Notes: generated by a model from the letters alone, not told the origin. A DNA stretch of 64,000 bases from a virus (IMGVR_UViG_3300012642_000011:96001-160000); one strand, 5' to 3'. Counted from the first letter of the stretch, positions 12,781 to 62,567 are shown. Program-made: numbers and translations.

Positions 12781-12823
12781 CCTTTTGATATAATAAGATA
12801 AGATAGCCTATTATATCAAGGAG

Positions 12824-19648: not shown

Positions 19649-20791
19649 ATGGATAATAATTATGAATTCAATGAGGATGACACACGTCCGATACATACAG
19701 GTTCCTCTGTAGACAGTACACAGGTTGAAACCACTACTGAGCCAGAGCCAGTAGAAGACAATCAAACACCATGGGGAAAGATCATTGCAGGAGCATTGAT
19801 TGCTCTGGGTCTTCTTGCACTTCTTGCTTGGTTCCTCTTCCAAGGAATGAACAAGGGCGACAGGATTGTTCCTACCGCATCCAACGAGTTGCTTAAAGAC
19901 GCTCAGACTACTTGTGAGCCATTTGAGCAGAATGATTTGAAATGTTCTGTTGATCTTGTCTTTGATGACGAAGTTTCAAGGGATTCATTGATCTCTCAAT
20001 CTGTTGCTCCCAATGAAAAAGTTCCCGCTGGAACAAAGATCGATCTTGCTTATTCTCGTGGGCCTGAAACATCTAAGTTCCCTGACATCACTGGGATGAC
20101 TGTTGAGGAAGCACAGAAGACACTCTACTCTATTGGTGTTGACATTGAAACTGTCAACATTGTAGATGACCCAGAAGTTGAAAGAGATCACATTGTTTCT
20201 GCTTCAACTGAAACTGGTGCTACAGTGAAGAATGGCGACACTGTGACTGTAAATGTTTCCAGTGGATCTGTAGAATTGCCTAATTGGGTAGGCAAGCAAG
20301 CAGATGAGGCTACTCAGGAAGCACAGGATCTTGGGCTTGACGTGAAAATCACAGAAGAAGAGTCAGACAAGGAAGAAGGAACTGTGATTGCACAGACACC
20401 TCAGCCAGGTGAAGTTGATTCTTCCTCTACTGTTGAACTCACTATTGCTGTCCCCTTTGAGGCTAAGTCAGCAAACGTTCCTAACGTGATCGGAATGTCT
20501 CCTGATGCTGCCAACGCTGCATTGGCTTCTGCTGGCTTCAGGAACATCTCTGTGATCGAGCAATCCAGTGAGAAGGTTTCTGAACCATCTGTGACTCAGA
20601 TCATTCCTGGTGTTAACGATAGCGTCAAGACAGACACTTCCATTGTGATCGTTGTGTCTTACCCAACCGAGGAAGCGCCTTCAAGCGCCCCTCAGGAGAC
20701 GGAAAACGCTAGAGGTACTGATAGTGCATCTACTGCCCCATCATCCTCTCCTGAGGCCATAGAGGGCGCTGAGGCATCACCTACATCATGA
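19649..20791 (+). CDS. membrane-anchored protein with three PASTA-like repeats
   Basis: N-terminal TM helix, then three repeats of the PASTA pattern (FPDITGMTVEEAQKTL..., LPNWVGKQADEATQEAQDLGL..., VPNVIGMSPDAANAALASAGF...). Acidic, S/P-rich C-terminus. Confidence 0.55.
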   Translation: MDNNYEFNEDDTRPIHTGSSVDSTQVETTTEPEPVEDNQTPWGKIIAGALIALGLLALLAWFLFQGMNKGDRIVPTASNELLKDAQTTCEPFEQNDLKCSVDLVFDDEVSRDSLISQSVAPNEKVPAGTKIDLAYSRGPETSKFPDITGMTVEEAQKTLYSIGVDIETVNIVDDPEVERDHIVSASTETGATVKNGDTVTVNVSSGSVELPNWVGKQADEATQEAQDLGLDVKITEEESDKEEGTVIAQTPQPGEVDSSSTVELTIAVPFEAKSANVPNVIGMSPDAANAALASAGFRNISVIEQSSEKVSEPSVTQIIPGVNDSVKTDTSIVIVVSYPTEEAPSSAPQETENARGTDSASTAPSSSPEAIEGAEASPTS

Positions 20792-20870: not shown

Positions 20871-21530
20871 GTGTGTTATCCTTTCAGCATGAACAACGAG
20901 ACTAACACGACCAACGCCCTTTCTGACGACAATGCTCCTTTTGGGATCAATCGTATTCCTCTGATCACTTTCGAGGATCATACTGAGAACCTTGAGTTGC
21001 GTAACGTCAAGGATGAGTATCGCGCCATGTTCAATGATGAGATCTCTGCCGACATCGATACCAAGCGTGTGCCTATGGTTTCCGTCTGCATGAACCTGAC
21101 CAGCGATTTCAACAAGGCATCTATTATTCGTGCAAACAATGCTTTTGCAGGCAGTGATGTAATTATTGCAGGTAAGAAGAAGTTTGATCGTCGTGGTACT
21201 GTAGGGTCTCATCATTATGAGCATCTTCGTCACCATAATGATGTCAATGTGATCATTGATGCTCTCAAGGAGGATGGTTACACGCTTTTTGCTGTTGACA
21301 ATACTCCTGAGTTTAACCCTGAGGTTATCTATGATTTCAAGTTCCCTGAGAAGAGCGCCTTCTTCTATGGAGAAGAGCAGAAAGGGCTTGACACTGACGT
21401 AGTGGCACAGTGTGATCATTGTGTCTACATCCCTCAGTTTGGATCTGTGCGCTCCATCAATGTGGCACAGGCTGCTTCTGTTGTCATGAGTGAGTACTCT
21501 CGACAGATGAGGTTCGCTGATAACTCCTGA
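20871..21530 (+). CDS. SpoU/TrmH-family (SPOUT) RNA 2'-O-methyltransferase
   Basis: C-terminal SPOUT motif YIPQFGSVRSINVAQAASVVMSEY and the upstream AGSDVIIAGKKK glycine-rich region. The start may be the ATG at 20889. Confidence 0.6.
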   Translation: MCYPFSMNNETNTTNALSDDNAPFGINRIPLITFEDHTENLELRNVKDEYRAMFNDEISADIDTKRVPMVSVCMNLTSDFNKASIIRANNAFAGSDVIIAGKKKFDRRGTVGSHHYEHLRHHNDVNVIIDALKEDGYTLFAVDNTPEFNPEVIYDFKFPEKSAFFYGEEQKGLDTDVVAQCDHCVYIPQFGSVRSINVAQAASVVMSEYSRQMRFADNS

Positions 21531-22912: not shown

Positions 22913-23824
22913 ATGGATAATGAGAACAATTCCACTCTTAACGGCTCTAAATCTTCGGAAGAATTGATTCAAGAGAGTAACAATCTTTCAGATGATACTG
23001 AGATCACAGAGGAGGACAAGGGCCATAAGTTCCTTAATAGAAGATCTCTTCTGATGGGGGCTGTCACTGTGGGGGCTATGGCAGTAAGTTATCCCTTGAT
23101 GAACTATGCTCTTGATGAGTATGATAATAAGAAAGCCAAGGATCAATTGAATGGCATCAAATCTCTCAGGGGTGAAGTATTCGCTATGAACACAGAGAAG
23201 GTGGTGTTCGAGGGTCAACGGGCAGAAGTAGCGTCATCTGATCAGAAAGCATTGGCTACTCCCGGTGGTAGTCATGAGAATTCTGCTGTCTGGTCTTTCT
23301 CCAACAAAAAGGAGAATGAAAATAGAAAAATTGTAGACCTCTTCCTTGACTTTAACTCCCCATCGTCTCGTGATATGTTATTGATTAATGCTGGAATGCT
23401 TCATGGCATGGTTTCCAATGCAACCATCGATTTAAATGTGCATCCATTGCCGTCAGGTGAGATCCTTTCCATGTATTCTTATACTGCTCTGTGTGAGACA
23501 TTCGTCACATCACCTTCTTTGGGTTGGGACGCGATGTTGGAGATGGCGAAGGTGAATGCCGAAAAGAAAGATGAGAGAACAAGGGAAGAATTCGCCAATC
23601 TGGTTGTGAAAAAACTCACAGATCTGGGAGTTGAAAAAATTTATAACGATTTGATATACTTAGGGGAGTTCACAAGCTGGATCATTGCATCTGGCAATAA
23701 CGACATGGTTAAAAATGCGGCAACTTCGGCCCCAATTTTGTATGTCAATGGAACAATGATCAACCTAAATAATATCAACGCCAATAACACGGAAGAAGTA
23801 CGAAAGTCTATCATAGAGCAGTGA
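22913..23824 (+). CDS. hypothetical membrane protein
   Basis: ATG with SD gaagga. One TM helix (LLMGAVTVGAMAVSYPL). Confidence 0.45.
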   Translation: MDNENNSTLNGSKSSEELIQESNNLSDDTEITEEDKGHKFLNRRSLLMGAVTVGAMAVSYPLMNYALDEYDNKKAKDQLNGIKSLRGEVFAMNTEKVVFEGQRAEVASSDQKALATPGGSHENSAVWSFSNKKENENRKIVDLFLDFNSPSSRDMLLINAGMLHGMVSNATIDLNVHPLPSGEILSMYSYTALCETFVTSPSLGWDAMLEMAKVNAEKKDERTREEFANLVVKKLTDLGVEKIYNDLIYLGEFTSWIIASGNNDMVKNAATSAPILYVNGTMINLNNINANNTEEVRKSIIEQ

Positions 23825-23865
23825 ACAGTTGTGTTTCTTTTGTATTGGTGCAATATGGAGGAAAC

Positions 23866-25134
23866 ATGAAAACCAAAAATAAAAAGATGCTTTCAACACT
23901 TGTTCTTTTGCCTATGGCATATGGACTTGTTGCTCCAAGCGCTGCTTTTGCACAAGAAGTTCCGTCATCAGCACAGTATCAAGAAAACATTGACAATGTG
24001 ACTATTGACTTGGAGAAAACAATGGAGAAGAAGACCGTTGTGTCTTCAGAGTCTGTTCCATTCCAGACAAGAGTCATTATGGACACCTCTCTTCCTGAAG
24101 GGACAGAGATTGTAGAACAAGAAGGAACAGAAGGCATTAAAGAGCAGTATCTCTCCACTTCACCTACCATCAAATCCGATGGATCACCTTCTACAATCAA
24201 AGTTAATCACGAGAAAGTGACAACTCTCCCTAAAGATAGGGTCATCAGAAAAGGTGCTGCTGACAATGTGGTAAAGAGCGTTGATTCTGACGTTATTGCG
24301 CTTGAAACTCAAAAGAAGATCGATGCTAGAAAGGCTGCTGAAGCAGAGAAGAAGCGTGAGGAAGAAGTCAGAAAGGCAGAGATCGCTAAGAAAGAGGCTG
24401 AAATAAAAGCAGCGAAGGAAAAGAGAGAGAAGGAGAAAGCCGCTAAGAAGGCAGAAGCACAAAGAAAGGTTGAGGAACAGTTGGCAAAGGAAGCCGCTGA
24501 AGCCAAGGCCAAGGAAGAGCAGGAGCGCAAAGAAGAACAGAAGAGTGCCGAATCCGCTCCTGTTGAATCTGCAGATCCAACACCTTCAGTATCTGCAACA
24601 CCTACACCAACACCTACACCAACTCCTACACCAACTCCTTCCAAGACTTCGGCCCCTAAGCCTGCTGCCGTAGAGAGAACATCTGAGTCTTCAACAACAC
24701 AAAAAACCGCAGCACCTAAGAAGACAGTGAAGCCTACACCTAAGGCGTCTAAGAAAAGCGTCTCCAAACCAAAGGCAACATATTCTGCTCCTGTGGCATC
24801 AGGAAATGCTATGAGTCCTTCACAGGCTAAAGCATATGCGAAAAAGTACATCCTCGATACATATGGCTGGGGAGAAAGAGACTATCAAGCATTGGTAAAG
24901 TTGTGGAATAGGGAATCAGGCTGGAACTACAAGGCTGCTAACCCTGCTTCTTCTGCAAGGGGAATTCCACAGGCTATGGTGACTATTCATTTTGGCGGAT
25001 ATAACACTCCTGCTGCTAGAGAGTACATGAATTCTGTTCCTGTTCAGGTTGCATGGGGAACAAAATACATCAAGGGAAGGTACGGATCTCCATCTGCTGC
25101 CCTTGCTCACAGCGATGCTGTAGGATGGTACTGA
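23866..25134 (+). CDS. secreted peptidoglycan-hydrolase-like protein (lysozyme-like/transglycosylase-like C-terminal domain)
   Basis: Signal peptide MKTKNKKMLSTLVLLPMAYGLVAPSAAFA. K/E/A-rich coiled coil. TPTPTPTPTPTPTP linker. C-terminal LWNRESGWNYKAANPASSARGIPQA motif typical of Gram-positive lysozyme-like surface proteins. Confidence 0.55.
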   Translation: MKTKNKKMLSTLVLLPMAYGLVAPSAAFAQEVPSSAQYQENIDNVTIDLEKTMEKKTVVSSESVPFQTRVIMDTSLPEGTEIVEQEGTEGIKEQYLSTSPTIKSDGSPSTIKVNHEKVTTLPKDRVIRKGAADNVVKSVDSDVIALETQKKIDARKAAEAEKKREEEVRKAEIAKKEAEIKAAKEKREKEKAAKKAEAQRKVEEQLAKEAAEAKAKEEQERKEEQKSAESAPVESADPTPSVSATPTPTPTPTPTPTPSKTSAPKPAAVERTSESSTTQKTAAPKKTVKPTPKASKKSVSKPKATYSAPVASGNAMSPSQAKAYAKKYILDTYGWGERDYQALVKLWNRESGWNYKAANPASSARGIPQAMVTIHFGGYNTPAAREYMNSVPVQVAWGTKYIKGRYGSPSAALAHSDAVGWY

Positions 25135-28834: not shown

Positions 28835-29110
28835 TGACAAAGCGATCAACGCTATGGTAGGATGATGACATCATCAACATCACAAGTTAATACGAAGTTA
28901 TTCGGTTCAGGGCGAAAATCGATCTGAAAGATGAATTTCAACAAGGACTTGACAACCGAGAGACACTATGGTATGATGATAACATCATCAACATCACAAG
29001 TGAATACGAAGTTATCTGGTCCAAGTTGAAAAGCGATCTGAAAGATGAATTTCATCAAGGACTTGACAACCGAGAAACAGTGTGTTATGATAGAGACATC
29101 AACAACGCAA
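28835..29110 (+). promoter_or_regulatory. three tandem copies of a roughly 118-bp unit, each with a near-consensus sigma70-type promoter
   Basis: Repeat units start near 28835, 28953 and 29071. The -35/-10 elements are TTGACA-18-TAGGAT, TTGACA-17-TATGAT (extended TGg) and TTGACA-17-TATGAT. Confidence 0.6.
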
Positions 29111-30989: not shown

Positions 30990-31062
30990 TGCCTCTTTAC
31001 TCCAATGGTAGAGAGAATCGGTTCAGATCCGATACAGTCTGGGTTCGACTCCCAGAAGAGGC
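30990..31062 (+). tRNA. class-I tRNA with anticodon CAG (reads CUG; Leu-decoding anticodon on a short-variable-arm scaffold)
   Basis: Acceptor gcctctt/aagaggc (perfect), 8-9 ta, D-arm ctcc/agag, anticodon stem atcgg/ccgat, loop ttCAGat, variable acagt, T-arm ctggg-ttcgact-cccag, discriminator A. Confidence 0.65.
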
Positions 31063-31236
31063 ACGCATGGACAAAAAGAAACGTTTGTCTCTGTATTTGT
31101 TGACACTTGATGCCAACACCAAGTTAGCGGGAGTGGTCCGTGGGATCACTCCGATGGTTCCATGTGACCTTCCACATGGCATCTTACGAAGACGAGATGA
31201 TCGCGGGGAAGCAGGTTGTTCTTGTAACGTCTTCAT

Positions 31237-31308
31237 GCCTCTCTATTCCAATGTAGAGAAACACGGCTAAGAACCGTGACAGTCTGGGTTCGACTCCCAG
31301 GAGAGGCA
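31237..31308 (+). tRNA. class-I tRNA with anticodon AAG (reads CUU; paralog of the CAG tRNA)
   Basis: Acceptor gcctctc/gagaggc (perfect), anticodon stem cacgg/ccgtg, loop ctAAGaa, variable acagt. T-arm identical to the CAG tRNA. Discriminator A. Confidence 0.65.
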
Positions 31309-34522: not shown

Positions 34523-34826
34523 GGACGTTGTATTTTCTTCGATAGTCACTGACTAACGAAAAAAGAATTCGGAAAAATGGTCTATAGTATTAATGGCAAA
34601 ATACTCACTCTTTAGTGGGAGATCGCGGTTCGAATCCGCGTAGACCTTCGATTAATAATAACGTGAACACTGATACCATGAATTCTTATATTTCATCAAA
34701 CTATAGCGGGGACACAATTATATTATTTATGCGCCATCTTCACCCAAAGCCCCCATCTCTGATATCACGCCGTGGATTATTATGCTAATTGTTATTCCAT
34801 TTGCATCTTAATTTAGAGAAGTCAGA

Positions 34827-36933: not shown

Positions 36934-39648
36934 GTGTCAAGGAACCTCAAAGCCAAGAAATTTCCTCCTAAAATTAGTCGTTCTTTTCAATCGGCTCTGA
37001 AGTATGCACAAGCAAACAAAGATGTTGAGAAAGCAGTAGAGAAAGCAACCTGCAACCTTCTTGAAGAGGGATTGACAGTATATGCGGGCAACGTTGCTCA
37101 TACTCACTACCCTCACAAGACAGACGGTGTTGTCACTGTCTCCAATGGACTCTTTGGCGACATGAGTATTCTGGTGGAAGCAAAGAGGGATTCAGGAGAC
37201 CTTTCTCAGCCCAAGTCCCGCGCTGTTGTAATCGCCCAGTCTGTCTTCTACCTCAAGAGGTTCAAGGATGCAGGAGACCTGATACCGTCTGTTCTGGTCT
37301 TTGCTGACATGGATCAGGTCTTTGCTCTCCCCACCTCTTTGGTCATCAACTACCTTGACGGAGTATGGGGTGAGGTCAGTGAGGGATGGAATTGGTCTCT
37401 GTCCCCTTCTGGGGTCTCCAAGCACTCTGTGAGTCTCGTGGAGGCACTATCTACAGACTCCAACCTCAGACCCTTCGTGCGTCCCGTTGATGACTCCTTT
37501 GACGCTGAGGCTTTCATCTCCTCTGTCTATGATATGGCAAGCACAGGAGAACCCATCAAGATCCCTGTGACAGCATTGACATTGGAGAGGCTGTTCTTGA
37601 AGTTCAATCAAAACGTCTTCGGTGGCATCCTCAACGCCAAGACGCAAGGGGACACAGTATCCAATCAAGATCAGATCTCCATCTTCATCGCTTCCCTGAA
37701 GGGTTCTGACTCCACTTACCTTCACCCTAAGCAGCCCAATGTGCTGGTGCATGGAAAGAAGAGTGTGCGCTTGAATTCAGATGCTTATGAAGCCTTCTGG
37801 AATCACTATGACTCAGCATCTTATACTCTGGATGAACTCAAGGCTATCACTGAAATCGCTGACACTCTCATCAACGATGTTGACAGAAGATTCCATGGTG
37901 ACTTTTGGACTCCTGTGATCTGGGTGAATAAGGCTCATGAGATGATCACTGAATCTCTTGGTGAGGATTGGAAGGATAATTATACTGTCTGGGACCCGGC
38001 TTGTGGCTCCAAGAACTTGACTCGTGACTACTATTTCAACAACCTCTACCTCTCCACTTTGCATGAAGAAGAGTTGGAGATCTCCTCTGACTACAACCCT
38101 GAAGCCTCAGGAGAGCATACCTTCGCCTATGATTTTCTCAATGATGATGTTGATGTCATGCATGGTGAGAATGCTTACACAAGAGATCAAATGGAGGCCA
38201 TGAGTGATGAAGAATTGAGCAGGACATTCAAGATGCCTGTGTCTTTGATTCGTGATTTGTTGGCAAAGAAGCCTTTTGTGTTCATTGGCAATCCGCCGTA
38301 TGGATCGGATGGAAATATGCAATCAGTTAACGAGTCAAAAAAATCAATTGCTGATACAAAGATTAGATCACTCATGCTGAAAAATAAAAAGGGTGGTCAT
38401 GCTGCGAGGGAACTTTATACTCAATTTATCTATAGGGTTAAAATAATATCTGATAAATTCAATTACAGCCATGAAGATGAGTTCCACTTCTTCTTCTTCA
38501 ATAAGGGCTTCTTGACATCTCCTAACTTTAGCGAATTTGTTTTTGACTTAACAGCAAAGTTTCACTTTAATAGAGGTTTTATGATCAATGCTGGTGAATT
38601 TAATGGTACATCTTCCTCATGGGGAATTATTTTCTCTCATTGGTCACTATTGGGTTTGAAAAATCAAAATGTTTTTAATTTTAATGTTCTTGAAAATAAA
38701 AAAGGAATTATAAAAGATATAGGGCATTGGTCAGGAGAAATTACTGGCAAATATAATACTATATCTTCATGGCTTTCCGAGGTGGAAATTCCCAAAAATA
38801 AAACTTATGAAAATGTACCTTTGACTAAAAATGGACTAGAAAAGAATACTTCAGCAAATCTTTATTCTAAAATGTCAAATGATTGGATTGGGTATATTGC
38901 TAATCATGCAAACAACGTCCATAAATCAGATAAGTATGTAGGAATGTATTCTATGGGTGCAGGGTCTCAAGTGGGATGGTGTATCACCCCTAACAACCTT
39001 ACCCGCGCCGCAATGACCTTCTCCATCCGCCGTTCAGTCCAAGAAGATATTGCTGAACACAAACTCCTCTGGGTGCGTGATAAAGACATCTTCACTGCCC
39101 CTTCTGAGGAACTTTCTGAAGACAAAGTATTCACTGCTGACTGCATGGTGTATTCACTCTTTGATCGCCAATCCAATCAGACTTCATTGCGCAACTTTGA
39201 ATACAATGGCAATAGTTATCGTATCATCAATGAATTCTTTCCGTTCTCAAGAGACTTCATTAAAGACTTGGCTGTTCAGCACAGGAATCTGAAGGTTCAG
39301 CAAGATGTCAGTGTAGAGACCAAAGAGCGCATTGTCTACAATTGGCTGCAGGAGAACGAAGAATACTTGAGTGATGAAGCAAGGGATCTCTTGAGAATCG
39401 TGAAGAACATCTATGAAGTCTCCTTTGCTTCCCGTGCTGACTATGATCACATGCACCCACGCTACCAAGTGCAATCATGGGATGCAGGATGGATGCAAAT
39501 CAACAGAATGGTCTTTGGCAACGATAGAATCAGTGATGAGTATCTTCACCTCAAGCCTGATTTCATTGCTGCCAGAAAAGTCTTGGGCAAAAAGATTGCT
39601 CAAGCCGCCTATGATGACGGCATCATAGCGGGGATTGAAAAAACTTAG
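36934..39648 (+). CDS. Type IIG restriction-modification enzyme (N-terminal PD-(D/E)XK nuclease fused to gamma-class N6-adenine methyltransferase)
   Basis: GTG start. N-terminal GDMSILVEAKRD nuclease motif. Methyltransferase motif I VWDPACGSKNL and motif IV FIGNPPYGSD. C-terminal roughly 400 aa is a putative target-recognition domain. 904 aa. Confidence 0.7.
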   Translation: MSRNLKAKKFPPKISRSFQSALKYAQANKDVEKAVEKATCNLLEEGLTVYAGNVAHTHYPHKTDGVVTVSNGLFGDMSILVEAKRDSGDLSQPKSRAVVIAQSVFYLKRFKDAGDLIPSVLVFADMDQVFALPTSLVINYLDGVWGEVSEGWNWSLSPSGVSKHSVSLVEALSTDSNLRPFVRPVDDSFDAEAFISSVYDMASTGEPIKIPVTALTLERLFLKFNQNVFGGILNAKTQGDTVSNQDQISIFIASLKGSDSTYLHPKQPNVLVHGKKSVRLNSDAYEAFWNHYDSASYTLDELKAITEIADTLINDVDRRFHGDFWTPVIWVNKAHEMITESLGEDWKDNYTVWDPACGSKNLTRDYYFNNLYLSTLHEEELEISSDYNPEASGEHTFAYDFLNDDVDVMHGENAYTRDQMEAMSDEELSRTFKMPVSLIRDLLAKKPFVFIGNPPYGSDGNMQSVNESKKSIADTKIRSLMLKNKKGGHAARELYTQFIYRVKIISDKFNYSHEDEFHFFFFNKGFLTSPNFSEFVFDLTAKFHFNRGFMINAGEFNGTSSSWGIIFSHWSLLGLKNQNVFNFNVLENKKGIIKDIGHWSGEITGKYNTISSWLSEVEIPKNKTYENVPLTKNGLEKNTSANLYSKMSNDWIGYIANHANNVHKSDKYVGMYSMGAGSQVGWCITPNNLTRAAMTFSIRRSVQEDIAEHKLLWVRDKDIFTAPSEELSEDKVFTADCMVYSLFDRQSNQTSLRNFEYNGNSYRIINEFFPFSRDFIKDLAVQHRNLKVQQDVSVETKERIVYNWLQENEEYLSDEARDLLRIVKNIYEVSFASRADYDHMHPRYQVQSWDAGWMQINRMVFGNDRISDEYLHLKPDFIAARKVLGKKIAQAAYDDGIIAGIEKT

Positions 39649-40591: not shown

Positions 40592-40849
40592 ATGTTAGGA
40601 TTCAACATCACAGTTTCAGGGGATAGTGGCTCTGTCACCAGAAGTTCATCAGCACAGTGCAAGATTCCGTCATCATGGGTTACACCTGATCCCAGTGTTG
40701 TCACTGTCATCTCCAATGGTGGCTACCCCACCCAATTCAGAGATGTTTTCAGTGATACAAAGGAAGATCTGACTACTGTCTTCAAATCAGAACGTCTTCC
40801 TTTTGAGGAATCAGAAGTTGTCACTGTCACCCTGTGGGATCAATCCTGA
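40592..40849 (+). CDS. hypothetical protein
   Basis: SD aggag 5 nt upstream. 85 aa. Confidence 0.4.
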   Translation: MLGFNITVSGDSGSVTRSSSAQCKIPSSWVTPDPSVVTVISNGGYPTQFRDVFSDTKEDLTTVFKSERLPFEESEVVTVTLWDQS

Positions 40850-40937
40850 CTATGCTCTGATCTCTCCTCTCGTTTTAGATTTACTCCGACAGAATCTGAA
40901 TTTTTCTGATAATTAGCTAGAGCGAGAAGGAGAGACC

Positions 40938-41432
40938 ATGAAGATCACCAAGGACACATACCGCTACATCGAAGACCTAATCGCCGCTGAAGACATCGAG
41001 TGGGCATGGAAGAGCACACTGAAGACCCATGCCCACCATCAGGGGTTCATCAACATCACAGAATCTGCAGAGTTCAGTGAAGCCACTGTCTTCAATGAGG
41101 ACACCCTTGATGACCTTGGCTACAACGGTGTCGGTGTCCTCTATCAGTATGCCCTTTCCATCTCCAGCAATGCATCCAAGAAGGAGACAGGGGCCTTCTA
41201 CACCCCTGAGGACATCGCTGACATCATGGCAGCACGGGCTTCCAGTGGAATCCATGAGCAGGGAAGATGGACTTCACCTTTGTTGAGGTGGAATTCCTCA
41301 GAGCGTTCAGAACTTCTTGAACACATTGACACCACCCTCAGCATTGCTACCATGACATCAACAACCCAATGTCGCTTGAGACCAAGACCACATTGGAATT
41401 GGATCAAGTTGACTTGCAAGATGTCAACATGA
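40938..41432 (+). CDS. hypothetical protein
   Basis: SD gaaggag upstream. 164 aa. Confidence 0.45.
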   Translation: MKITKDTYRYIEDLIAAEDIEWAWKSTLKTHAHHQGFINITESAEFSEATVFNEDTLDDLGYNGVGVLYQYALSISSNASKKETGAFYTPEDIADIMAARASSGIHEQGRWTSPLLRWNSSERSELLEHIDTTLSIATMTSTTQCRLRPRPHWNWIKLTCKMST

Positions 41433-41476
41433 TATGCTATGATAGACAAGCAACAACAGAATAGAGAACTTCATAT

Positions 41477-41564
41477 GGATGGTTGTCCGAGCGGCCGAAG
41501 GATCTGGTCTTGAAAACCAGTGTGCAGTAACCCTGCACCGTGGGTTCAAATCCCACACCATCCG
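41477..41564 (+). tRNA. tRNA-Ser (TGA), class II, copy 2 (CCA encoded)
   Basis: Same acceptor ggatggt/accatcc and anticodon arm as copy 1. The variable arm sequence differs. Confidence 0.8.
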
Positions 41565-41743
41565 CCAGAGTGTTCATGTTTGATATACTCTAAAGAAGGC
41601 ACACGAAACGCTCTGTATCAAAAGATATAGTCGCCGTGGTGAGAAAAGTAGCGCTGCTAATCTCACTTCTATGAATTTATCCATAGAATGCAATTGTCCG
41701 TAAAAAGGCAATTTGATAGGTGTAAGATTTTACACCTATCCTC

Positions 41744-41815
41744 GCCTCTTTAGCTCAGCGGCAGAGCACCTGTCTTGTAAACAGGGGGTCGGGGTCTCGG
41801 AATCCCCAAGAGGCT
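41744..41815 (+). tRNA. tRNA-Thr (TGT) with aberrant T-loop (CTCGGAA)
   Basis: Acceptor gcctctt/aagaggc (perfect). Anticodon stem cctgt/acagg, loop ctTGTaa. T-arm ggggt-ctcggaa-tcccc (C54, G58). Confidence 0.55.
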
Positions 41816-41836
41816 CAACAACAATTTAATACACAC

Positions 41837-41908
41837 GCTTCTGTAGGTTAACGGTAAACCAGATGACTCTAAATCATTGACATGCGGGTTCGACTCCCGT
41901 CAGAAGCA
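41837..41908 (+). tRNA. tRNA with anticodon CTA (amber/UAG suppressor candidate)
   Basis: Acceptor gcttctg/cagaagc (perfect). D-arm ggtt-aacggta-aacc. Anticodon stem gatga/tcatt, loop ctCTAaa (U33, A37). T-arm gcggg-ttcgact-cccgt. Discriminator A. Confidence 0.65.
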
Positions 41909-42010
41909 CGAAGATAAAGTAAATCTCTTAAGTTGAGTTTACTCTTTCTTCTGTCTACTTGACAACACAAGAAGTATAGTGTACAATAGAAGACAACAAC
42001 AACAAAATAT

Positions 42011-42098
42011 GGAGATGTGGCTGAGCGGCCTAAAGCGGCACCCTGCTAAGGTGTTAGTCGGTAATCCCGGCTCGCAGGTTCAAATCCTGTCATCTCCG
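42011..42098 (+). tRNA. tRNA-Ser (GCT), class II
   Basis: Acceptor ggagatg/catctcc. Anticodon stem gcacc/ggtgt, loop ctGCTaa. Long variable arm. T-arm gcagg-ttcaaat-cctgt. Confidence 0.8.
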
Positions 42099-42139
42099 CG
42101 ATCATTGAAAGCACTGCTGGCAATGAGACAATTGAATAT

Positions 42140-42215
42140 AGGGGTGTAGCTCAGTTGGTCAGAGCGGTGGTCTCCAAAACCTCGTCAGTCGCAGGTTCGA
42201 ATCCTGTCACCCCTG
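42140..42215 (+). tRNA. tRNA-Trp (CCA)
   Basis: Trp-type acceptor aggggtg/cacccct plus G. Anticodon loop ctCCAaa. 7-nt variable region. Confidence 0.75.
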
Positions 42216-42231
42216 CTTATAACTTAATCAA

Positions 42232-42305
42232 GGCCCATTGGAGAAACTGGTTATCTCGCCACCCTCTCAAGGTGGAGGCTACGGGTTCGAGTCCCGTATG
42301 GGTCA
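42232..42305 (+). tRNA. tRNA-Glu (CTC), copy 2
   Basis: Acceptor ggcccat/atgggtc. D-arm gaga/tctc. Anticodon stem ccacc/ggtgg, loop ctCTCaa. T-arm acggg-ttcgagt-cccgt. Confidence 0.75.
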
Positions 42306-42691
42306 CAGGAGAGGCAGCGGTAATGATTCCGAGCGCATCAACATGATGAACAATCAAGCGGATGCGAAAAGGAATTATATCTCGTAGTCAAGACTCCACT
42401 AACCCCCGAAACGCTTTGGCGGGTAATTCAAAGCGACATGGGTATAAATTGTTGAATCCATGGACTAGCGGGCAATTCAACGTTGGCTTCCATAAGAAGT
42501 TTTGTCTGCATTACTGCCACCATGTTGGTATGTCATTGGGGGCACCTGACTTATGGCGAAAGGTGCCCGACAACTCAATATGTGATGTAAAGAGTGTTGA
42601 CAAGCATATGAAGATATACGATCATTACATTATATAAGGAATCAAGAGGATTGAAAGATTTCAATCTGATAGCATTCTTCACATAATTATG

Positions 42692-42765
42692 GTGACTATA
42701 GCTCAATTGGTTAGAGCGCCGGTTTGTGGTACCGGAGGTTGCGAGTTCGAGGCTCGTTAGTCACC
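42692..42765 (+). tRNA. tRNA-His (GTG), copy 2, canonical G-1:C73 and CCA encoded
   Basis: G at -1, acceptor gtgacta/tagtcac, discriminator C, then cca. Anticodon stem ccggt/accgg, loop ttGTGgt. Confidence 0.8.
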
Positions 42766-44347: not shown

Positions 44348-45838
44348 ATGAATTTCTTAGAAGCACATCCAGAAGTTTCATCATCATGGTCTGAAAATAA
44401 TGCATTCTCTCCTGACTCAATCTCCAAAGCATCAAGGAAAAAAGTCATCATCATCTGTGATAAACATGGTGACTATGAAATCAGGGCAGATTCTTACCAC
44501 AATGGCAACAGATGCAAACAATGTGCAGCAGAAGTCAAAGCACAGAGCAAGATCACGAAAGCAATTGCTCAACATGGAAGCGGTCTAGAAAAGTACCCCT
44601 CGCTAAAAAAGTATGCAGTAAGAGATTTCCACGCTAAAGATGATCACAAGATACCATTCCGCTGTCCCGATTGCGCACACGAATGGACGCTATCGCCCTA
44701 TAGTCAAATGATTATCAACGGCTGCCCACAATGTGACCCACAGGCAAAGATAAGAATGAAGAATCACATTCCTACTATGAAGTCTTTGACACATGGAAAC
44801 ATAGCAGACCAGAAACCAGAGATAGTTGCACAATGGTCGCCAAAAAATGATCTAACAACAGAACAAGTCAGTTGCGGTTCTGGTTATCGCGCTACATGGA
44901 TATGTGAGATCAATCCGAACCATGAATGGGAATCCTTTGTTTACCAGAGAGCAGGAAAGAAGGAAACAGGATGCCCACAATGCAATATATCTGGAATAGA
45001 ATCAGAAATTGGTCAACTCCTATCCGATCACCATGTTGACTTCATTCGTTCCAATCGAAAAATTATTGCACCCTATGAACTGGACATATACATTCCAGAG
45101 AAAAATGTAGCCATAGAAGCCAATGGTGTCTATTGGCATACAGAAAAACAAGGAAAAGATAGGAACTATCACTACAACAAGTGGAAACAATGCCATGATC
45201 AAGGAATCCAACTGATCACCATCTGGGAAGATGACTGGATGATGAAAAAAGAACTCATTAAAAAGATGATTCTTCACAAGATTGGACTATCCCATCAGAA
45301 AAGTATCTACGCACGTACATGTTCAGTCAAAGATGTTCCCACTATAGAATCCAATAGATTCTTGAATACTTACCATATTCAAGGAGAAGCAAGAGGAAGT
45401 GTGAAGATTGGACTTCACCATGAAGGAGAACTGGTTGCTATCTCCGTATGGAAGAAACTTAAAGAAGATGAATGGGAATTATCTCGCTATGCAACAAGCA
45501 TGAACGTTGTTGGTGGAGCAAGCAAAGTCATCAAAGCATTCATTCGTCAACACTCGCCAAGCAAGATTGTCACATTCGCTGACCATGAAGTATCTGATGG
45601 TGGACTATATGAAAAATTAGGGTTCACTGCCGACAAGGAGATCAAGCCTGATTACAAGTATGTTATAGACAACAAAAGAATACACAAGTTTAATTATAGA
45701 TTGAAGAGGTTCAAGAGCGATCCCACACTCATCTACGAAGAAGGATTGAGTGAATCACAGTTGGCTCAACTGAATAACATTGATAGAGCATGGGATTGCG
45801 GTAAAACACGATATATTCTGCAGTTACCCTTGATTTGA
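44348..45838 (+). CDS. homing-endonuclease-like protein (paralog 2 of 4)
   Basis: Zinc-ribbon repeats (C..C ... C..C) plus ELDIYIPEKNVAIEANGVYWH...GIQLITIWEDDW and the shared C-terminal domain (IVTFADHEVSDGGLYEKLGF...HKFNYRLKRFK...WDCGKTRY). Confidence 0.7.
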   Translation: MNFLEAHPEVSSSWSENNAFSPDSISKASRKKVIIICDKHGDYEIRADSYHNGNRCKQCAAEVKAQSKITKAIAQHGSGLEKYPSLKKYAVRDFHAKDDHKIPFRCPDCAHEWTLSPYSQMIINGCPQCDPQAKIRMKNHIPTMKSLTHGNIADQKPEIVAQWSPKNDLTTEQVSCGSGYRATWICEINPNHEWESFVYQRAGKKETGCPQCNISGIESEIGQLLSDHHVDFIRSNRKIIAPYELDIYIPEKNVAIEANGVYWHTEKQGKDRNYHYNKWKQCHDQGIQLITIWEDDWMMKKELIKKMILHKIGLSHQKSIYARTCSVKDVPTIESNRFLNTYHIQGEARGSVKIGLHHEGELVAISVWKKLKEDEWELSRYATSMNVVGGASKVIKAFIRQHSPSKIVTFADHEVSDGGLYEKLGFTADKEIKPDYKYVIDNKRIHKFNYRLKRFKSDPTLIYEEGLSESQLAQLNNIDRAWDCGKTRYILQLPLI

Positions 45839-47791: not shown

Positions 47792-47830
47792 AAATAGACC
47801 AGTAAATTACTGGTCTATTTTTGTTTTTGA
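47792..47830 (+). terminator. strong terminator
   Basis: aaatagaccagtaaattactggtctattt followed by ttgtttttg. Confidence 0.7.
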
Positions 47831-47916
47831 TGGTCGTTTTTATCTTACTTCTCACCATACTTGTATACTTCTCCCAAATGGTGTGCTCTAAGCATAGATC
47901 TTGTTATCATATATGT

Positions 47917-49665
47917 ATGAAGCCCCAACTGTATGAGTATTTTTTAGATCATCCCGAAATGAAAGCAATGTGGTCACGTCGCAATAGTGACGAACTGTTG
48001 TCTAAAACGGCTGGAAGCAATGTGAAGGCACTATGGTCTTGCTCTACTTGTGGGCAAGAATCATTAATCCCTATTTACCGCAAGGTCAACAATCCTCTTA
48101 CATGTTCTACATGCAATGGGAGCAAGGTGGTTCAAGGGGTGAATGATTTGGAAACAATGTATCCCGAAATAGCGTCTGAATGGTCGTCGAGGAATGAGAA
48201 GAAACCTTCAGAAGTAAAATATAGTTCTGCAATCACTGCTGAATGGGATTGTAAAAATGGGCACTCTTTTACTATGTATCTTCCTGAAAGGACGAGATCG
48301 ACCAGGAAATCTCGGGGGTGCCCTGAGTGTAGAAGACAAGAAATCCAGGAAGACAAAGAGAATAACCCTAATAAGCGCTCTATTGCATCGGGAAATGGAT
48401 CAGCGGAGATGCAGCAGATGTTTGTGGAATCATTAGGAAAGATCAAATTTCCAGGAGCGAGGTCAGGCACACTTTGCTTATGGAGATGCTCGAAGGGGCA
48501 TGAATGGAGGCAAGTTCCTAAGAGATTTAATGGATGTGAAATCTGCGATCCGCCCCAGTATATTCTACCGCAGTCCAGGAACAAAAACATTTTAAAGGTA
48601 TCCAATTCGATCCTCCACACTCATCCTCATGCTATAGAATTATGGAATGATTCAAGAAGTCCAGAATCAGTAACTAAAGGATCATCCTATCGCGCTCAAT
48701 GGAAGTGTGCTAAAAACCATCAATGGGAACAATCTGTCTACACAGTGCTCCGGTCCCTCGACAAAGGTCACAAAGCATGCCCTCATTGCTCTTCCATGAT
48801 TTCTGCTGCTGAAAAGAAAATCTCTGAGATTGTAAAGGAGGCAATGAATCCATTGGGTTTAACTGTCCTCACTTCCCATCGTAAATTGATTCCTCCCTAT
48901 GAAGTAGACATTTATGTTCCTGAGAAGAAGATTGCTATTGAATACAATGGTCTCTACTGGCATAGTGATGCTAATCGAAAGGGTAAAGACAGGAATTATC
49001 ACTACAACAAGTGGAAGAAATGCAAAGATCAAGGTGTCCAATTGATCACCGTGTGGGAGGATGATTGGCGTGACCATGAGGACATTGTGACATCAATGTT
49101 GTTGACCAAGTTGGGTGTTTCTGATGCTCAGAAAGTCAATGCTCGTGATTGTGTGATCGTAGAATCTTCTTATACCGATTCTTCTGCATTTCTTGATGCT
49201 CACCATATTCAAGGTTCAGCAAGAGGGAGTTTCTATCTTTCCTTATTGCATGATGGTGTCATGGTGGCAACTTCGGTGTGGGTGAAGAGGGGGTCAGACC
49301 TTGTTCTTGAGCGCTACGCAACCTCTGTGAGCGTTCGTGGTGGCATGGGTAAACTGTTGAAGGCTGGGTGCATAGAAGGCCGTCAGAGGGGCGCACAGCG
49401 CGTTGTGACTTTTGCTGATCATGGTGTTTCTGATGGTGGATTGTATGAGCGCCTTGGTTTCGTTGCTGACAAGGTGTTGAAGCCTGATTATGCGTATGTT
49501 GTAGATGGTGATAGGAAGCATAAGTTCAATTACAGGTTGAAGAGGTTCAAGAATGATCCAGTATTGAGATATGTGGACGGTTTATCTGAATCCCAGTTGG
49601 CTGAGTTGAATGAGATTCCTCGTGTATGGGATTGTGGGAAGACGCGGTATGTGATGGGTCTTTGA
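47917..49665 (+). CDS. homing-endonuclease-like protein (paralog 3 of 4; the 47821 start is unlikely because it overlaps the terminator)
   Basis: Zinc-ribbon repeats, then KLIPPYEVDIYVPEKKIAIEYNGLYWHSD...GVQLITVWEDDW, then the shared C-terminal domain. Confidence 0.65.
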   Translation: MKPQLYEYFLDHPEMKAMWSRRNSDELLSKTAGSNVKALWSCSTCGQESLIPIYRKVNNPLTCSTCNGSKVVQGVNDLETMYPEIASEWSSRNEKKPSEVKYSSAITAEWDCKNGHSFTMYLPERTRSTRKSRGCPECRRQEIQEDKENNPNKRSIASGNGSAEMQQMFVESLGKIKFPGARSGTLCLWRCSKGHEWRQVPKRFNGCEICDPPQYILPQSRNKNILKVSNSILHTHPHAIELWNDSRSPESVTKGSSYRAQWKCAKNHQWEQSVYTVLRSLDKGHKACPHCSSMISAAEKKISEIVKEAMNPLGLTVLTSHRKLIPPYEVDIYVPEKKIAIEYNGLYWHSDANRKGKDRNYHYNKWKKCKDQGVQLITVWEDDWRDHEDIVTSMLLTKLGVSDAQKVNARDCVIVESSYTDSSAFLDAHHIQGSARGSFYLSLLHDGVMVATSVWVKRGSDLVLERYATSVSVRGGMGKLLKAGCIEGRQRGAQRVVTFADHGVSDGGLYERLGFVADKVLKPDYAYVVDGDRKHKFNYRLKRFKNDPVLRYVDGLSESQLAELNEIPRVWDCGKTRYVMGL

Positions 49666-52737: not shown

Positions 52738-54675
52738 ATGAAACTCTGTGATAAGTATCCCCAGCTTAAAAATAAGTATTCACAACTTAATAATACTATT
52801 TTTGAGGAAAAAGAGTATCGATACGATGAGTATCTTTTTTGGGATTGTCCTCAAGGGCATCATATTTATAAGCCTGCTAGAGAAATCAATAGATATCAAA
52901 ATTGCAATTCCTGTGAAAACATCAAAAAGACTGGGATTGAGTTCTTTGAAAGCTTGGAATACCTCTATCCCTCTATCGTAGAAAAATATAGTGTCAAAAA
53001 TATTCTTTCTGCAAACAGTGTTCGACCAGACTCACTTTTTAATGCAATCTGGGAAGATCGAGATGAGAAAATAAAAATATACGATAGGGTTCTGGAAGAA
53101 ATATCTTCAGGAAATGTGAAAAGAAATCATGTAACGAAGAGAAACGTAAAAAATAGAAAAAAGAAAGACAATGTTTCTGCGGAAAGTATATCCAAGCCGC
53201 AAGAAAAAGAGGATTCACCTCTTTTAAAAGATGCCTACCCAGACCTTTATGAAATGCGATTAAACGATTGTGAAGATCTTAATATTTGGTCTAATAAAAA
53301 ACTTTTGTGGAAGTGCGACAAAGGGCATGAGTTCACTTCAAGTATACGAAACCTCATTAAAAGATCAACTAAGTGCAATGTCTGTAGTGGAGTTGCCTTG
53401 CAAAAGGGAGTCAATGATATTTCGACCCTGGCTCCTGACCTTGCCTCATGCATTGTATCTCCTGACCCTTCAGAAATTACATTAGCATATAATAAACCTA
53501 TCACTTTTAAATGTTTCACTTGCATGCATCAGTGGGTTTCAAATTTGGATAAAAGAAAAGACAGATCTTTAAGATGTCCTGGATGCAGCGGAAAAACTGT
53601 AATTCATGGATTCAATGACATTGAAACTATTATGCCGCACATCAAAAATTCATGGGCAAAGAATAATAAATACATGCCTTCTGAAATGACAACAAAAAGC
53701 GAAAAAGAAGTATACCTTTATTGTTCGAATGGAATATCGCATGATCTGGTTAAGACTTATGCATATGTAATTTCTCGAACACCTAATAGGAGAACTTATT
53801 TATGTAATCACTGTTCTGGATCTGCTGGTGAAATCGATATGGCAAATTTCATTGCTTCGCTCGGATTTACCACAATCAGAAAAGACAGGAAAATTATAAG
53901 GCCAAAAGAACTGGATGTATATCTTCCTGATCTCAAGGTGGCTTTTGAATACAATGGTCTCTATTGGCATTCAGATAAGGCAGGCAAATCCGACACCTAC
54001 CATTACGACAAGTGGAAGCGCTGTGCTGACAAGGGTATCCAGTTGATCTCTATCTGGGAGGATGATTGGAACTATCGTGAGGACATTGTCAAGAGGATGA
54101 TTGCTCACAAGTTGGGCGTCAGCAATGATCGCAAAGTCTACGCTCGGCAAACCGATGTCGTCATTGTAGACAAGGATGATGCCCGAGCGTTCTGCAATGC
54201 CCACCACATTCAAGGCTATGTATCTGGTAGCGTCTACTATGGTCTCAAAGATCGCAGGACGGATTCTTTGGTGGCTGTGAGCGTCTGGAAGCGTTCAGGT
54301 GACCAATTGCGCCTTGAGAGGTATTGCACGTCTGAGAACGTGATTGGTGGCATGGGAAAGATGTTGAAAGCGGGAGTCCAGTATGCCAAGGACAATGGGT
54401 TGAGCAAGATCGTCACTTTCTCTGATCATGATGTCTCTGATGGTGGACTGTATCGAAGACTTGGATTCATTCCTGACAAGGAGTTGAAGCCTGATTACAA
54501 GTATATCGTCGGCGGTACCAGGGTTCATAAATTCAACTATCGCATCAAGAGGTTCAGGGATGATCCGAACTTGAAGTATGCTGATGGTCTCACTGAATCC
54601 GAGTTGGCGCAGTTGAACAGTCTTCCTCGTGTTTACGATGCCGGCAAGACGCGTTGGGCGATCAATGTATCCTAA
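52738..54675 (+). CDS. homing-endonuclease-like protein (paralog 4 of 4)
   Basis: Zinc-ribbon repeats, then KELDVYLPDLKVAFEYNGLYWHSD...GIQLISIWEDDW, then the shared C-terminal domain. Confidence 0.7.
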   Translation: MKLCDKYPQLKNKYSQLNNTIFEEKEYRYDEYLFWDCPQGHHIYKPAREINRYQNCNSCENIKKTGIEFFESLEYLYPSIVEKYSVKNILSANSVRPDSLFNAIWEDRDEKIKIYDRVLEEISSGNVKRNHVTKRNVKNRKKKDNVSAESISKPQEKEDSPLLKDAYPDLYEMRLNDCEDLNIWSNKKLLWKCDKGHEFTSSIRNLIKRSTKCNVCSGVALQKGVNDISTLAPDLASCIVSPDPSEITLAYNKPITFKCFTCMHQWVSNLDKRKDRSLRCPGCSGKTVIHGFNDIETIMPHIKNSWAKNNKYMPSEMTTKSEKEVYLYCSNGISHDLVKTYAYVISRTPNRRTYLCNHCSGSAGEIDMANFIASLGFTTIRKDRKIIRPKELDVYLPDLKVAFEYNGLYWHSDKAGKSDTYHYDKWKRCADKGIQLISIWEDDWNYREDIVKRMIAHKLGVSNDRKVYARQTDVVIVDKDDARAFCNAHHIQGYVSGSVYYGLKDRRTDSLVAVSVWKRSGDQLRLERYCTSENVIGGMGKMLKAGVQYAKDNGLSKIVTFSDHDVSDGGLYRRLGFIPDKELKPDYKYIVGGTRVHKFNYRIKRFRDDPNLKYADGLTESELAQLNSLPRVYDAGKTRWAINVS

Positions 54676-60641: not shown

Positions 60642-62567
60642 ATGAAAAACATAAAACTCAAAAAGATATCTGCTGCTGTAGTAATCTCATTTGCATCAGC
60701 AGGATTTTTGACTACTGCCAACGCCCCTGGCGCTTTCGCTCTTCCTGATTCTCAAGACAATGTTAATTCCAGCAATATCGTTGATACTGGTGGTCACGTT
60801 GATGTCACAGGAATCAACGCTACAGTTAACGACAATGATACTGTAACATATAAGTATCAAGTTTCTGTTCTTCCTATGATGTCTTCAGATCATGGTCAGA
60901 CTTCATCTGTTTTCAAGATGAGTGTCCCCCAATTTGTAGAGCAAGATCAGGTGAAGTTCACTCTGGTCGGAACATATGACTCTTCTGTTCACATTGACAA
61001 TGTAGATGGAATTAGTGTGCCTGCTACGGAAATCACAAGAGTCAACAGACCTCTTGATGTCTTCAGCGATCGTAATCTACTTTCCTACTATGATGATAAA
61101 ACTGGTAGTAGTAAAGCTAGTCATCAAATCCCCACTACTGATCAAATTCAACTTGAACTCGATAGTGGTTTAACGTCCATGCCGAATGCTGTCTTCTACA
61201 CACCTGCTGGCATTTTATATGAATCTTCAGAGGGACCAACTGAACCAACAGATAGCATGAACCGTTACTATATAGCAAGCAGCTTCGTTAAGCCAGTTGT
61301 CATGGAAGTAGAGATTACTGTTCCTCTAGATGCCGCTCAAACATATAAGACCGTCCCACTTCGAGTAGAGAATTTTACTAGGGCTTTTGAAACAGGCAGC
61401 GCAGAGACTGCCGAAGGAGCACAAAGATTCGATATCGCTCCATATCGATTCTGGGATGACTCAATTAAACAACTGGTCGAAGATTTCCCTGACCAATATG
61501 CAAATCTCCCCTATGTTGATGACTGGATGAGTCCTTTAACCCATCCTGAATTGATTGATGCTGCTTCTGTTCTTCCATCAGGGCTGATGGGAGTCTCTAC
61601 GTGTACTCCTACTAAACCATCTGCGTTCGGTACTATCGGCTATGACATTGCTGCCAGTGCATTCAGCTATGTTAATACCTTCGCCCTTGAAACACATCCA
61701 TATGCTAGTTTTTTGACCACTAAGAATGAAGACATGTGTGATCAGGATGCTATCATAAGCACCCAACTGTTCACTCCTGAAGCCACTGATGATTCATCAA
61801 CTGCTCCACAGGGTCAGTCTGTTGATATAGATGTTCTTAGCAATGACACTCCATCAAATGTAGACCTTGATCCTACTACTCTCAAATTGGTAGATGCAAA
61901 TGATGACCCTGTAGATACCTTGGTTGTTGATGGAGAAGGAACATGGACAGTCGTAGATGGTCGTTTGAATTTTACTCCACTCGCTGATTTCACAGGAGAA
62001 ACTACACCTGTTTCATACATTGTGAAAGATATGAACGGAAATTCAACTACTGCTAACGTTATGGTTACTGTAACTCCTGCGGTAACACCAGAGCCAACTC
62101 CAACACCAGAACCTACAAATCCTGTAGTAACACCAGAGCCAACTCCAACACCAGAACCAACAAATCCTGTAGTAACACCAGAACCAACACCCACACCAGA
62201 ACCAACAGACCCTGTAGTAACACCAGAACCAACACCAACACCAGAACCAACAAATCCTGTAGTAACACCAGAACCAACACCCACACCAGAACCAACAAAT
62301 CCTGTAGTAACACCAGAACCAACACCCACACCAGAACCAACAGACCCTGTAGTAACACCTACCACATCGGTAGTGGTATCAGATCCTACTACAGAGCCTG
62401 TGAAAACAGAAACTCCTCAGTCTGACAGCGTTCTGATTAAGACCGGAGAATCTGTAAAGAACGATAATCAGAATCTTCTTATGGCTGGTGTTCTTTCAGG
62501 TCTGGGAGTTTTGGGATTTATTGGATCTACTCTCGGAATCAGTCGTTTCAGGAAGAATAAGGCATGA
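60642..62567 (+). CDS. cell-wall-anchored surface protein (signal peptide, PT-rich tandem repeats, LPXTG-like LIKTG sorting signal)
   Basis: Signal peptide [28 protein letters not shown]. Six or more repeats of [16 protein letters not shown]-terminal LIKTGE, then a hydrophobic segment, then RFRKNKA. Confidence 0.65.
62086..62365 (+). repeat. 42-nt in-frame tandem repeats (about 6.5 copies) encoding the PT-rich linker
   Basis: gtaacaccagaaccaacacc(a/c)acaccagaaccaaca(a/g)a(t/c)cct repeated. Confidence 0.8.

Follow-up and report, generated by a model that had tools for sequence, protein, structure and literature searches.

What does a tRNA with anticodon CUA, the anticodon of an amber suppressor, do in a viral genome whose neighbouring genes look standard-code? 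This question is raised by a gene at positions 41837-41908 (+) of the window, by which we mean the whole stretch of 64,000 nucleotides of viral DNA analysed here. CUA suppressors are an already known kind of phage device: they are strongly associated with TAG recoding in phages (Borges et al., bioRxiv 10.1101/2021.08.26.457843), and TAG-recoded (code 15) phages carrying them include crAss-like, Lak, Jade/Sapphire/Agate and other phages (bioRxiv 10.1101/2021.08.26.457843; PMC9523058; PMC13037316). In recoded phages the early genes keep the standard code and the structural and lysis genes are recoded (Borges et al., bioRxiv 10.1101/2021.08.26.457843); a survey of jumbo phages from 2026 found recoding confined to the regions of hallmark genes (PMC13037316). 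The documented reassignments of TAG in phages are all to Gln, glutaminylation being cited for TAG suppressors, and the path that has been proposed leads from depletion of a stop codon to the acquisition of its suppressor, in precursor genomes that are low in GC and rich in TAA (Borges et al., bioRxiv 10.1101/2021.08.26.457843). For contigs of 100 kb or more, their criterion of recoding is a gain in coding density above 5 % when TAG is read as sense. Accessory RF2 or aminoacyl-tRNA synthetase genes are optional and occur in only some of the recoded clades.

The window is part of a metagenomic contig of 332,269 bp (ENA ERZ27289831:k141_11150, in which it occupies positions 219,744-283,743 on the reverse strand, the record position being 283,744 minus the window position). 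The sequence read amounts to 82.3 kb, namely the window with 8.7 kb upstream and 9.7 kb downstream, i.e. about a quarter of the contig. Genes in and near the window encode ribonucleotide reductase (RNR) subunits, Dda/PIF1-like, SNF2-like and RecG-like helicases, SbcD, an Alt-like ADP-ribosyltransferase (11492-12271, +), AAA proteases and a SpoU RNA methylase, and they are accompanied by IS200/605 and IS607-type elements and by at least four HNH/DUF4379 homing endonucleases across a tRNA array. The 82 kb contain no capsid, portal or terminase gene and no recognisable structural or lysis gene. Because capsid, portal and terminase genes are absent from this part, it is from the remaining gene content that we infer an uncultivated jumbo phage, which is what the contig looks like. 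Its gene content fits the large phage proposed in a preliminary description of this DNA, and the nucleotide-metabolism, replication and tRNA genes of the window ('early/middle' genes) agree with the early region suspected there. The phage is related neither to crAss nor to Lak phages. Neither by DNA nor by a 904-aa protein discussed below was a close relative found among GenBank phages (the best GenBank phage match of a helicase has 35 % identity), and no relative was found in IMG/VR.

Structure and setting of the tRNA gene

ARAGORN places the tRNA at 41837-41909, with anticodon CTA, and the general tRNA model Rfam RF00005, searched against the whole window, aligns full length to 41837-41908 with 65.5 bits (E = 5.6e-12; gathering score 29), model positions 1-71 all being matched. 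This score ranks 8th among the 34 tRNA matches of the window, i.e. in the top quarter of the array. In the covariance alignment the anticodon loop CUCUAAA (41867-41873) takes model positions 32-38, as C32, U33, C34-U35-A36, A37 and A38; the anticodon CUA (41869-41871) with its flanking U33 and A37, as read previously, is thus put at the same position by alignment, ARAGORN and direct reading. The 72-nt gene specifies a perfect acceptor stem of seven Watson-Crick pairs (GCUUCUG/CAGAAGC) followed by discriminator A73, a D-stem GGUU/AACC with a 7-nt D-loop that contains G18-G19, a 5-bp anticodon stem, a variable loop of 5 nt and a T-arm GCGGG-UUCGACU-CCCGU. Acceptor stem, D-stem and T-arm had been read correctly before, with the single refinement that the outermost pair of the T-stem is a G-U wobble. 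The set of tertiary nucleotides is complete (U8, A14, G18-G19, A21, U33, purine 37, T54-Psi55-C56, A58, G53-C61), a T-loop UUCGA and an A15-U48 Levitt pair are also present, and the gene does not encode a CCA end. Thermodynamic (MFE) folding yields a cloverleaf (-20.2 kcal/mol, z = -2.4), in which the A/U-rich anticodon stem is the sole marginal part. ARAGORN, covariance model and fold agree on the well-formed class-I tRNA that had been described, and it is confirmed, far beyond chance, that the gene specifies an intact canonical class-I elongator tRNA with anticodon CUA.

The ARAGORN label for this gene, 'tRNA-Pyl', is given to any tRNA with anticodon CUA. In genuine pyrrolysine tRNAs the variable loop has 3 nt, the D-loop is short and lacks G18-G19, the anticodon stem has 6 bp and the T-loop is atypical. 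Such an identity, for which the anticodon is the only argument, is rejected with practical certainty, since the present tRNA is canonical in every one of these features (5-nt variable loop, 7-nt D-loop with GG, 5-bp anticodon stem, standard T-loop) and fits the general model end to end; furthermore, neither pylS nor pylBCD was found in the 82 kb.

A sister strain from a different study (L084) is syntenic with positions 38,983-59,690 of the window at 92-98 % nucleotide identity, about 7 % of the aligned positions being different, and retains the gene order Ser-Thr-CUA-Ser-Trp-Glu. The suppressor shows 0/73 differences between the two strains, with the nearest SNPs 10 nt upstream and 6 nt downstream. 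Invariance is common in this array (14 of 18 tRNAs), the spacers diverging about 3-fold faster than the tRNAs, and zero changes in 73 nt have P = 0.27 at the local spacer rate, a test of low power when taken alone. Each of the 7 assemblies that cover the site contains the exact sequence. Little about conservation can be learned from the other assemblies of the phage, which are >= 99.99 % identical to the window, and the sequence of a 94.5 % relative (L007) ends 1.4 kb short of the suppressor site.

Two further tRNA genes, both on the + strand and called by ARAGORN and Rfam, precede the suppressor in what appears to be one transcription unit: tRNA-Ser(UGA) at 41477-41567 is its first gene, and tRNA-Thr(UGU) at 41744-41816, with 0 differences in the sister strain, lies 20 nt 5' of the suppressor. 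A consensus scan found two overlapping sigma-70-like matches with extended -10 (TG) 5' of tRNA-Ser (41409-41443, +), which we take for the putative promoter of the Ser-Thr-CUA unit. Directly 3' of the suppressor, a hairpin followed by a U-rich tract (41906-41954, +; -14.5 kcal/mol, z = -2.86) forms a candidate terminator. The scan also gave a near-consensus promoter TTGACA-17-TACAAT for the next tRNA cluster (41959-41987, +). On the + strand of 40800-42700 there are 10 promoter-like sites, as against 2.7 +/- 1.7 in shuffles. The cluster would be transcribed by the host polymerase from the sigma-70-like promoters, and its transcript would end at the hairpin just 3' of the suppressor.

The array as a whole (29892-58988, +; ARAGORN, Rfam) comprises 38 ARAGORN calls within the window, with HNH/DUF4379 genes interspersed, and six further calls lie past the window end (two for Cys, one each for Val, Thr and Ser, and one whose anticodon has 4 bases). 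Dense arrays of this kind, with at least 44 tRNAs on a single strand, all 20 amino acids covered and homing endonucleases in between, are like those of jumbo and other big phages; the present array differs from them by an additional 21st specificity (UAG), which is matched by a loss of TAG terminators. Several of its members are unusual. Two tRNAs of 72-73 nt, i.e. of class-I size, carry leucine anticodons CAG and AAG but no long variable arm (30991-31063 and 31237-31308, +; Rfam 54.5 and 48.9 bits); A73 and the suppressor's T-arm are common to the two, and normal long-arm Leu tRNAs are also present. A reassignment of sense codons by these short tRNAs may be conceivable. At 34578-34649 (+) ARAGORN reports a tRNA-like gene with a 6-nt anticodon loop ('tt'), which is absent from the Rfam gathering list, and about 2.8 kb past the window end (L002 13874-13950) another with the 4-base anticodon 'caag' in an 8-nt loop; these two genes could be decaying tRNAs or frameshift-type decoders.

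The four HNH/DUF4379 paralogues (4674-6407, 44348-45838, 47821-49665 and 52738-54675, +) are 37-46 % identical to one another, adjoin RNR and stand between tRNA clusters. Their family has > 1,500 members on large viral-like contigs; none of the 1,556 matches of a family profile search is traceable to contig k141_11150. Compared with the sister strain, identity falls to 75 % in the copy at 47821, and the neighbouring tRNA-Pro(UGG) at 47708 differs at 21 positions, a pattern suggestive of turnover of array segments by endonuclease action.

Other mobile and repetitive elements occur in the same region. The RNR large subunit (6718-11298, +; 1,526 aa) contains Hint, intein-splicing and LAGLIDADG domains and hence one or more inteins. 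In an IS200/605 element (12379-14125) the Y1 transposase is encoded on the minus strand and a TnpB of 430 aa starts at 12833; the edge of the element coincides exactly with the break points of several independent assemblies, and the TnpB was found in one genomic context only. Just past the window end there is an IS607-type element (L002 11248-13424), which encodes a serine recombinase and a TnpB of 524 aa. A 114-nt tandem duplication (28840-29067) is situated just 5' of the first tRNA of the array, and eight in-frame copies of a 45-nt-register repeat (62031-62390) are found inside an Ig-like (Big_9/CshA) gene (60642-62567). No abundant phage-specific DNA motif was found. Among the remaining genes, the SpoU/TrmH-family RNA 2'-O-methyltransferase (20871-21530, +) has tRNA as a possible substrate, an S26 signal peptidase is encoded at 16334-17086 (+), and the four PASTA repeats of a protein at 19649-20791 (+) are a hint of a Gram-positive host.

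Genetic code and loss of TAG terminators

The + strand is already densely coding under code 11. When TAG is dropped as a stop, ORF length comes to 19,661 aa, as against 19,664 aa in the control with TAA dropped, and a codon log-odds model trained on long ORFs finds one side of every TAG-spanning ORF extension to be non-coding-like. No in-frame TAG occurs in the 57 confident genes over 82.3 kb, nor in the Ig-like repeat gene (60642-62567) and a transglycosylase-domain gene (23821-25134), both of which are plausibly virion-associated. The coding fraction (code 11, ORFs >= 100 aa) is 0.78 here, compared with 0.42 around the suppressors of a positive control, which consists of 41 IMG/VR loci sharing the suppressor's anticodon arm (36 of them with a CUA tRNA at the match). 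The positive-control phages are recoded; the region read here is standard code, and the absence of in-frame TAG, the lack of extra ORF gain over the TAA control and the high coding fraction all bear out the earlier impression of standard-code genes in the window.

TAG has nevertheless nearly vanished as a stop. The 57 confident genes end in TGA 43 times, in TAA 13 times and in TAG once, in a sequence of 42 % GC with TGA as its main stop. Since TAG makes up 17.8 % of the stop triplets in the raw sequence, this single occurrence represents a real depletion (p = 1.8e-4); TAA stops match the trinucleotide background, and TGA absorbs the share that is missing from TAG. The sister strain has no TAG stop in 15 called genes. 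In more distant relatives 28 of 98 genes end in TAG (Fisher p = 9e-6 against 1/57), a baseline formed by genomes with 45-56 % amino-acid identity in the 904-aa protein together with the short L007, of each of which only 4-23 kb were sampled and whose hosts may differ. No suppressor was found in the sampled loci of these relatives, and a scan of JGI data yielded only relatives at 45-64 % identity, none with a suppressor in the loci sampled.

The only confident gene that ends in TAG (36934-39648, +; stop at 39646-39648) encodes a DNA methyltransferase-like protein of 904 aa. Its DPAAGT and NPPY motifs are invariant, and it is probably an N6-adenine or N4-cytosine DNA methyltransferase. The protein has no Pfam, PHROG or PDB match, and a PDB profile search with the family was also empty; it has no near match in GenBank phages and none in IMG/VR. 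That the protein has > 445 homologues, on metagenomic contigs reaching hundreds of kb, points to a widespread uncultivated clade; some of the homologues carry LAGLIDADG inteins (P0039, P0119). None of the homologues extends past this stop, which makes the TAG a true one. The orthologue in the sister strain ends in TGA, a switch from TAG to TGA between the two strains. Programmed read-through of the gene was considered and rejected: the extension would comprise 6 aa before a second TAG and is not conserved, and homologues end earlier.

Neither a release factor nor an aminoacyl-tRNA synthetase was found in the 82 kb by PHROG, Pfam or precomputed annotations, and the tRNA calls of this sequence include no second suppressor.

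Origin and affinities of the suppressor

The suppressor is not recently derived from another tRNA of the array: its best identity to the other 37 tRNAs of the window is about 50/73, and that to the phage's own tRNA-Trp (42140-42216), which has the acceptor end A1-U72 with G73, is 44/73. Some of its parts are nevertheless Trp-like. Positions 8-27 (the D-arm through position 27) are identical to those of a Bryobacterales tRNA-Trp(CCA) (L073 2420-2493), and one substitution, C35U, separates the loop CUCUAAA from the Trp loop CUCCAAA. The acceptor end, G1-C72/A73, conforms neither to bacterial Trp (A1-U72, G73) nor to Gln (U1-A72, G73), and resembles that of the phage's Lys(CUU) tRNA and of the two short tRNAs with Leu anticodons. 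The alignment by which identity was to be inferred thus gives a divided answer, with a D-arm and loop of Trp type and an acceptor end of neither Trp nor Gln type. A scan with the D-arm retrieved one tRNA-Trp and one odd AUA tRNA. The exact D-arm of the suppressor is present in a long-variable-arm tRNA with anticodon UAU and A73 (L020 1355-1445, IMGVR_UViG_3300007508_000366), which belongs to a phage tRNA array with a tmRNA gene. The body of the suppressor, with any anticodon, was found in no cellular genome searched. Its module of variable loop and T-arm tells nothing about identity, since it recurs in other large phages in tRNAs for Lys, Glu and Gly and in UCA tRNAs.

The identity rules of E. 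coli favour Lys or Gln as the amino acid of a CUA tRNA with A73. Candidates for the amino acid carried by the suppressor would be Gln or Lys by the anticodon, Trp by D-arm and loop, and Leu by A73 and the likeness to the short 'Leu' tRNAs. The G1-C72/A73 end disfavours canonical recognition by GlnRS, although charging by GlnRS via the anticodon would still be possible. A parallel is Su7 of E. coli, a tRNA-Trp in which the anticodon CCA was changed to CUA and which is charged mainly with Gln. The present suppressor has the same kind of loop (Trp with C35U) and a Trp-type D-arm; it differs from Su7 by G1-C72/A73 in place of A1-U72/G73 and in not being a recent derivative of the phage tRNA-Trp.

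The resemblance to code-15 phages is close in some respects. As in these, a canonical CUA tRNA is encoded by a large phage in which TAG is rare as a stop, and the suppressor lies in a standard-code region; moreover, the 17-nt anticodon arm GAUGA-CUCUAAA-UCAUU is identical on 36 IMG/VR contigs. On these contigs (in L025-L065; 95-270 kb long, for the most part from 3300045988) the CUA suppressor is Gln-like; many of them have another suppressor (CUA or UUA) on the opposite strand at a distance of 2-3 kb, and their local code-11 coding fraction of 0.42 indicates recoded genomes. There are also differences. Suppressors of code-15 phages are Gln-like, with U1-A72 and another D-arm, and match ours at 55/73 positions; ours has G1-C72, A73 and a Trp-like D-arm. 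Their surroundings have a coding fraction of 0.42 under code 11, those of our suppressor 0.78, with no in-frame TAG, RF2 or synthetase in 82 kb; GC is 42 % with predominant TGA stops rather than low with TAA, and the phage has no close relative in any of the code-15 clades. As the tRNA bodies differ, the common anticodon arm is best read as convergence or chance. The statement that recoding phages carry such tRNAs holds as far as the literature and the anticodon are concerned; it does not extend to the body of this tRNA, which is unlike the Gln type of crAss-like and other code-15 phages.

The best BLAST match in 50,697 phage records is a tRNA of the Agrobacterium jumbo phage Atu_ph07 (84 % over 50 nt), covering anticodon arm, variable loop and T-arm. 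This tRNA (MF403008.1 430713-430787; L066 2985-3059) is of class I with anticodon UCA, lies unannotated in an intergenic gap and is opal-suppressor-like. It shares with ours G1-C72, A73, an anticodon that reads a stop codon and its presence in a jumbo phage, in this case a cultured one; its anticodon is opal instead of amber, and its acceptor and D-stem sequences differ. A common suppressor lineage of the two was rejected, the shared module being found in Lys, Glu and Gly tRNAs as well. A further parallel is provided by a standard-code phage with an acquired suppressor, as in the Agate-clade example depicted by Borges et al. (Fig. 3A, bioRxiv 10.1101/2021.08.26.457843). In that figure, too, the suppressor is placed in a genome, or part of one, of standard code in which the matching stop is depleted; the example depicted is a gut phage with a TGA suppressor and recoded close relatives, and ours has a TAG suppressor and no recoded relative known.

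Possible roles of the suppressor

The near-elimination of TAG as a stop, together with a tRNA unchanged in a diverged sister strain, favours a functional suppressor; it is probably working, in a phage genome adapted to it. The tRNA would be charged by an aminoacyl-tRNA synthetase of the host and would compete with release factor 1 at UAG, so that termination at this codon would become unreliable during infection.

What such an activity serves can be read in several ways. Tentatively, and with a likelihood that we put somewhat short of even, we favour a genuine suppressor that is kept by selection as a code-change device, the late structural and lysis genes being TAG-recoded. The 82 kb read would then be the standard-code-compatible, TAG-free early/middle part of the genome, and TAG-containing genes, if any, would be situated among the structural and lysis genes in the other three-quarters. 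We count for this reading the intact tRNA, the depletion of TAG, the occurrence in 7/7 assemblies, the promoter- and terminator-like frame, the pattern described by Borges et al. and the anticodon arm shared with recoded phages. Counted against it are 0/57 genes with in-frame TAG, the non-Gln body, the lack of a release factor, synthetase or second suppressor in the 82 kb, and 42 % GC with TGA stops; the same holds for the missing ORF gain relative to TAA, the two TAG-free virion-like genes, the conservation value of P = 0.27 and the distance of the baseline relatives.

All direct observations are also compatible with an active suppressor in a genome that uses the standard code throughout, an alternative which we regard as only slightly less likely. 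TAG would be unassigned, i.e. purged as a stop and not yet a sense codon, and the tRNA might buffer nonsense mutations (the intermediate stage of Borges et al.), allow read-through of a few phage genes or disturb TAG termination in the host. The 82 kb of standard code at high coding density, the purge of TAG stops, the absence of a code-change module nearby and the non-Gln body are all expected on this account; standard-code relatives with an acquired suppressor have been described (Borges et al., bioRxiv 10.1101/2021.08.26.457843), and the suppressor, which belongs to a near-complete set of at least 44 tRNAs, could have come with a wholesale acquisition of tRNAs. However, without TAG codons selection on the tRNA would be weak and the state short-lived, yet it scores high and is unchanged at about 7 % divergence. 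Read-through of the sole TAG-ended gene would moreover be short, run into a second TAG and is not conserved, and the sequence read is only a quarter of the genome.

Two bolder readings of an active suppressor whose body is not of Gln type appear unlikely. Either UAG would be translated as Trp, Lys or Leu in late genes, or it would be stably unassigned in a genome otherwise of standard code, with the suppressor aimed at the host. The G1-C72/A73 end disfavours canonical recognition by GlnRS, and the sequence read offers no TAG sense codon that would show the residue.

Slightly lower still do we rate the chance that the tRNA is a neutral passenger or non-functional, its anticodon having mutated to CUA or the host being unable to charge it, in an array of fast turnover. 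The mixed acceptor end, which fits no bacterial identity set cleanly, would agree with such a fate, as would a conservation that is not significant by itself (P = 0.27), other odd or degenerate tRNA-like genes in the array (e.g. at 34578 and 31896) and the sampled loci of distant relatives, in which there is no suppressor. Yet a decaying gene is hard to reconcile with the high covariance score and the full set of tertiary nucleotides, a near-identical sense paralogue as a recent source is absent, and the suppressor is present in every assembly that spans the site. Above all, a silent tRNA would leave the strong, lineage-specific depletion of TAG stops unexplained.

[quoted passage not shown] Documented cases are, to our knowledge, nearly all gut phages with Gln-type CUA suppressors. 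To these is now added a lineage of uncultivated jumbo phages whose GC is moderate and whose tRNA set is complete, with a suppressor of different structure. Suppression has also left a clean trace in its genome: TAG terminators, common in relatives, have been purged here, and in one gene TAG is replaced by TGA between sister strains. In practical terms, genes on this contig are best called twice, once with TAG as a stop and once with TAG as sense. Should the standard code extend to the rest of the genome, the phage would be a well-defined example of the intermediate stage that has been proposed to precede recoding, and a suppressor directed at the host would mean that TAG-terminated host genes are read through during takeover. 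If, on the other hand, late genes hold TAG, the residues aligned with it would reveal whether reassignment to an amino acid other than Gln exists in phages; translation of UAG as Trp, Lys or Leu in these genes would be a stop-codon reassignment of a kind undocumented in phages.
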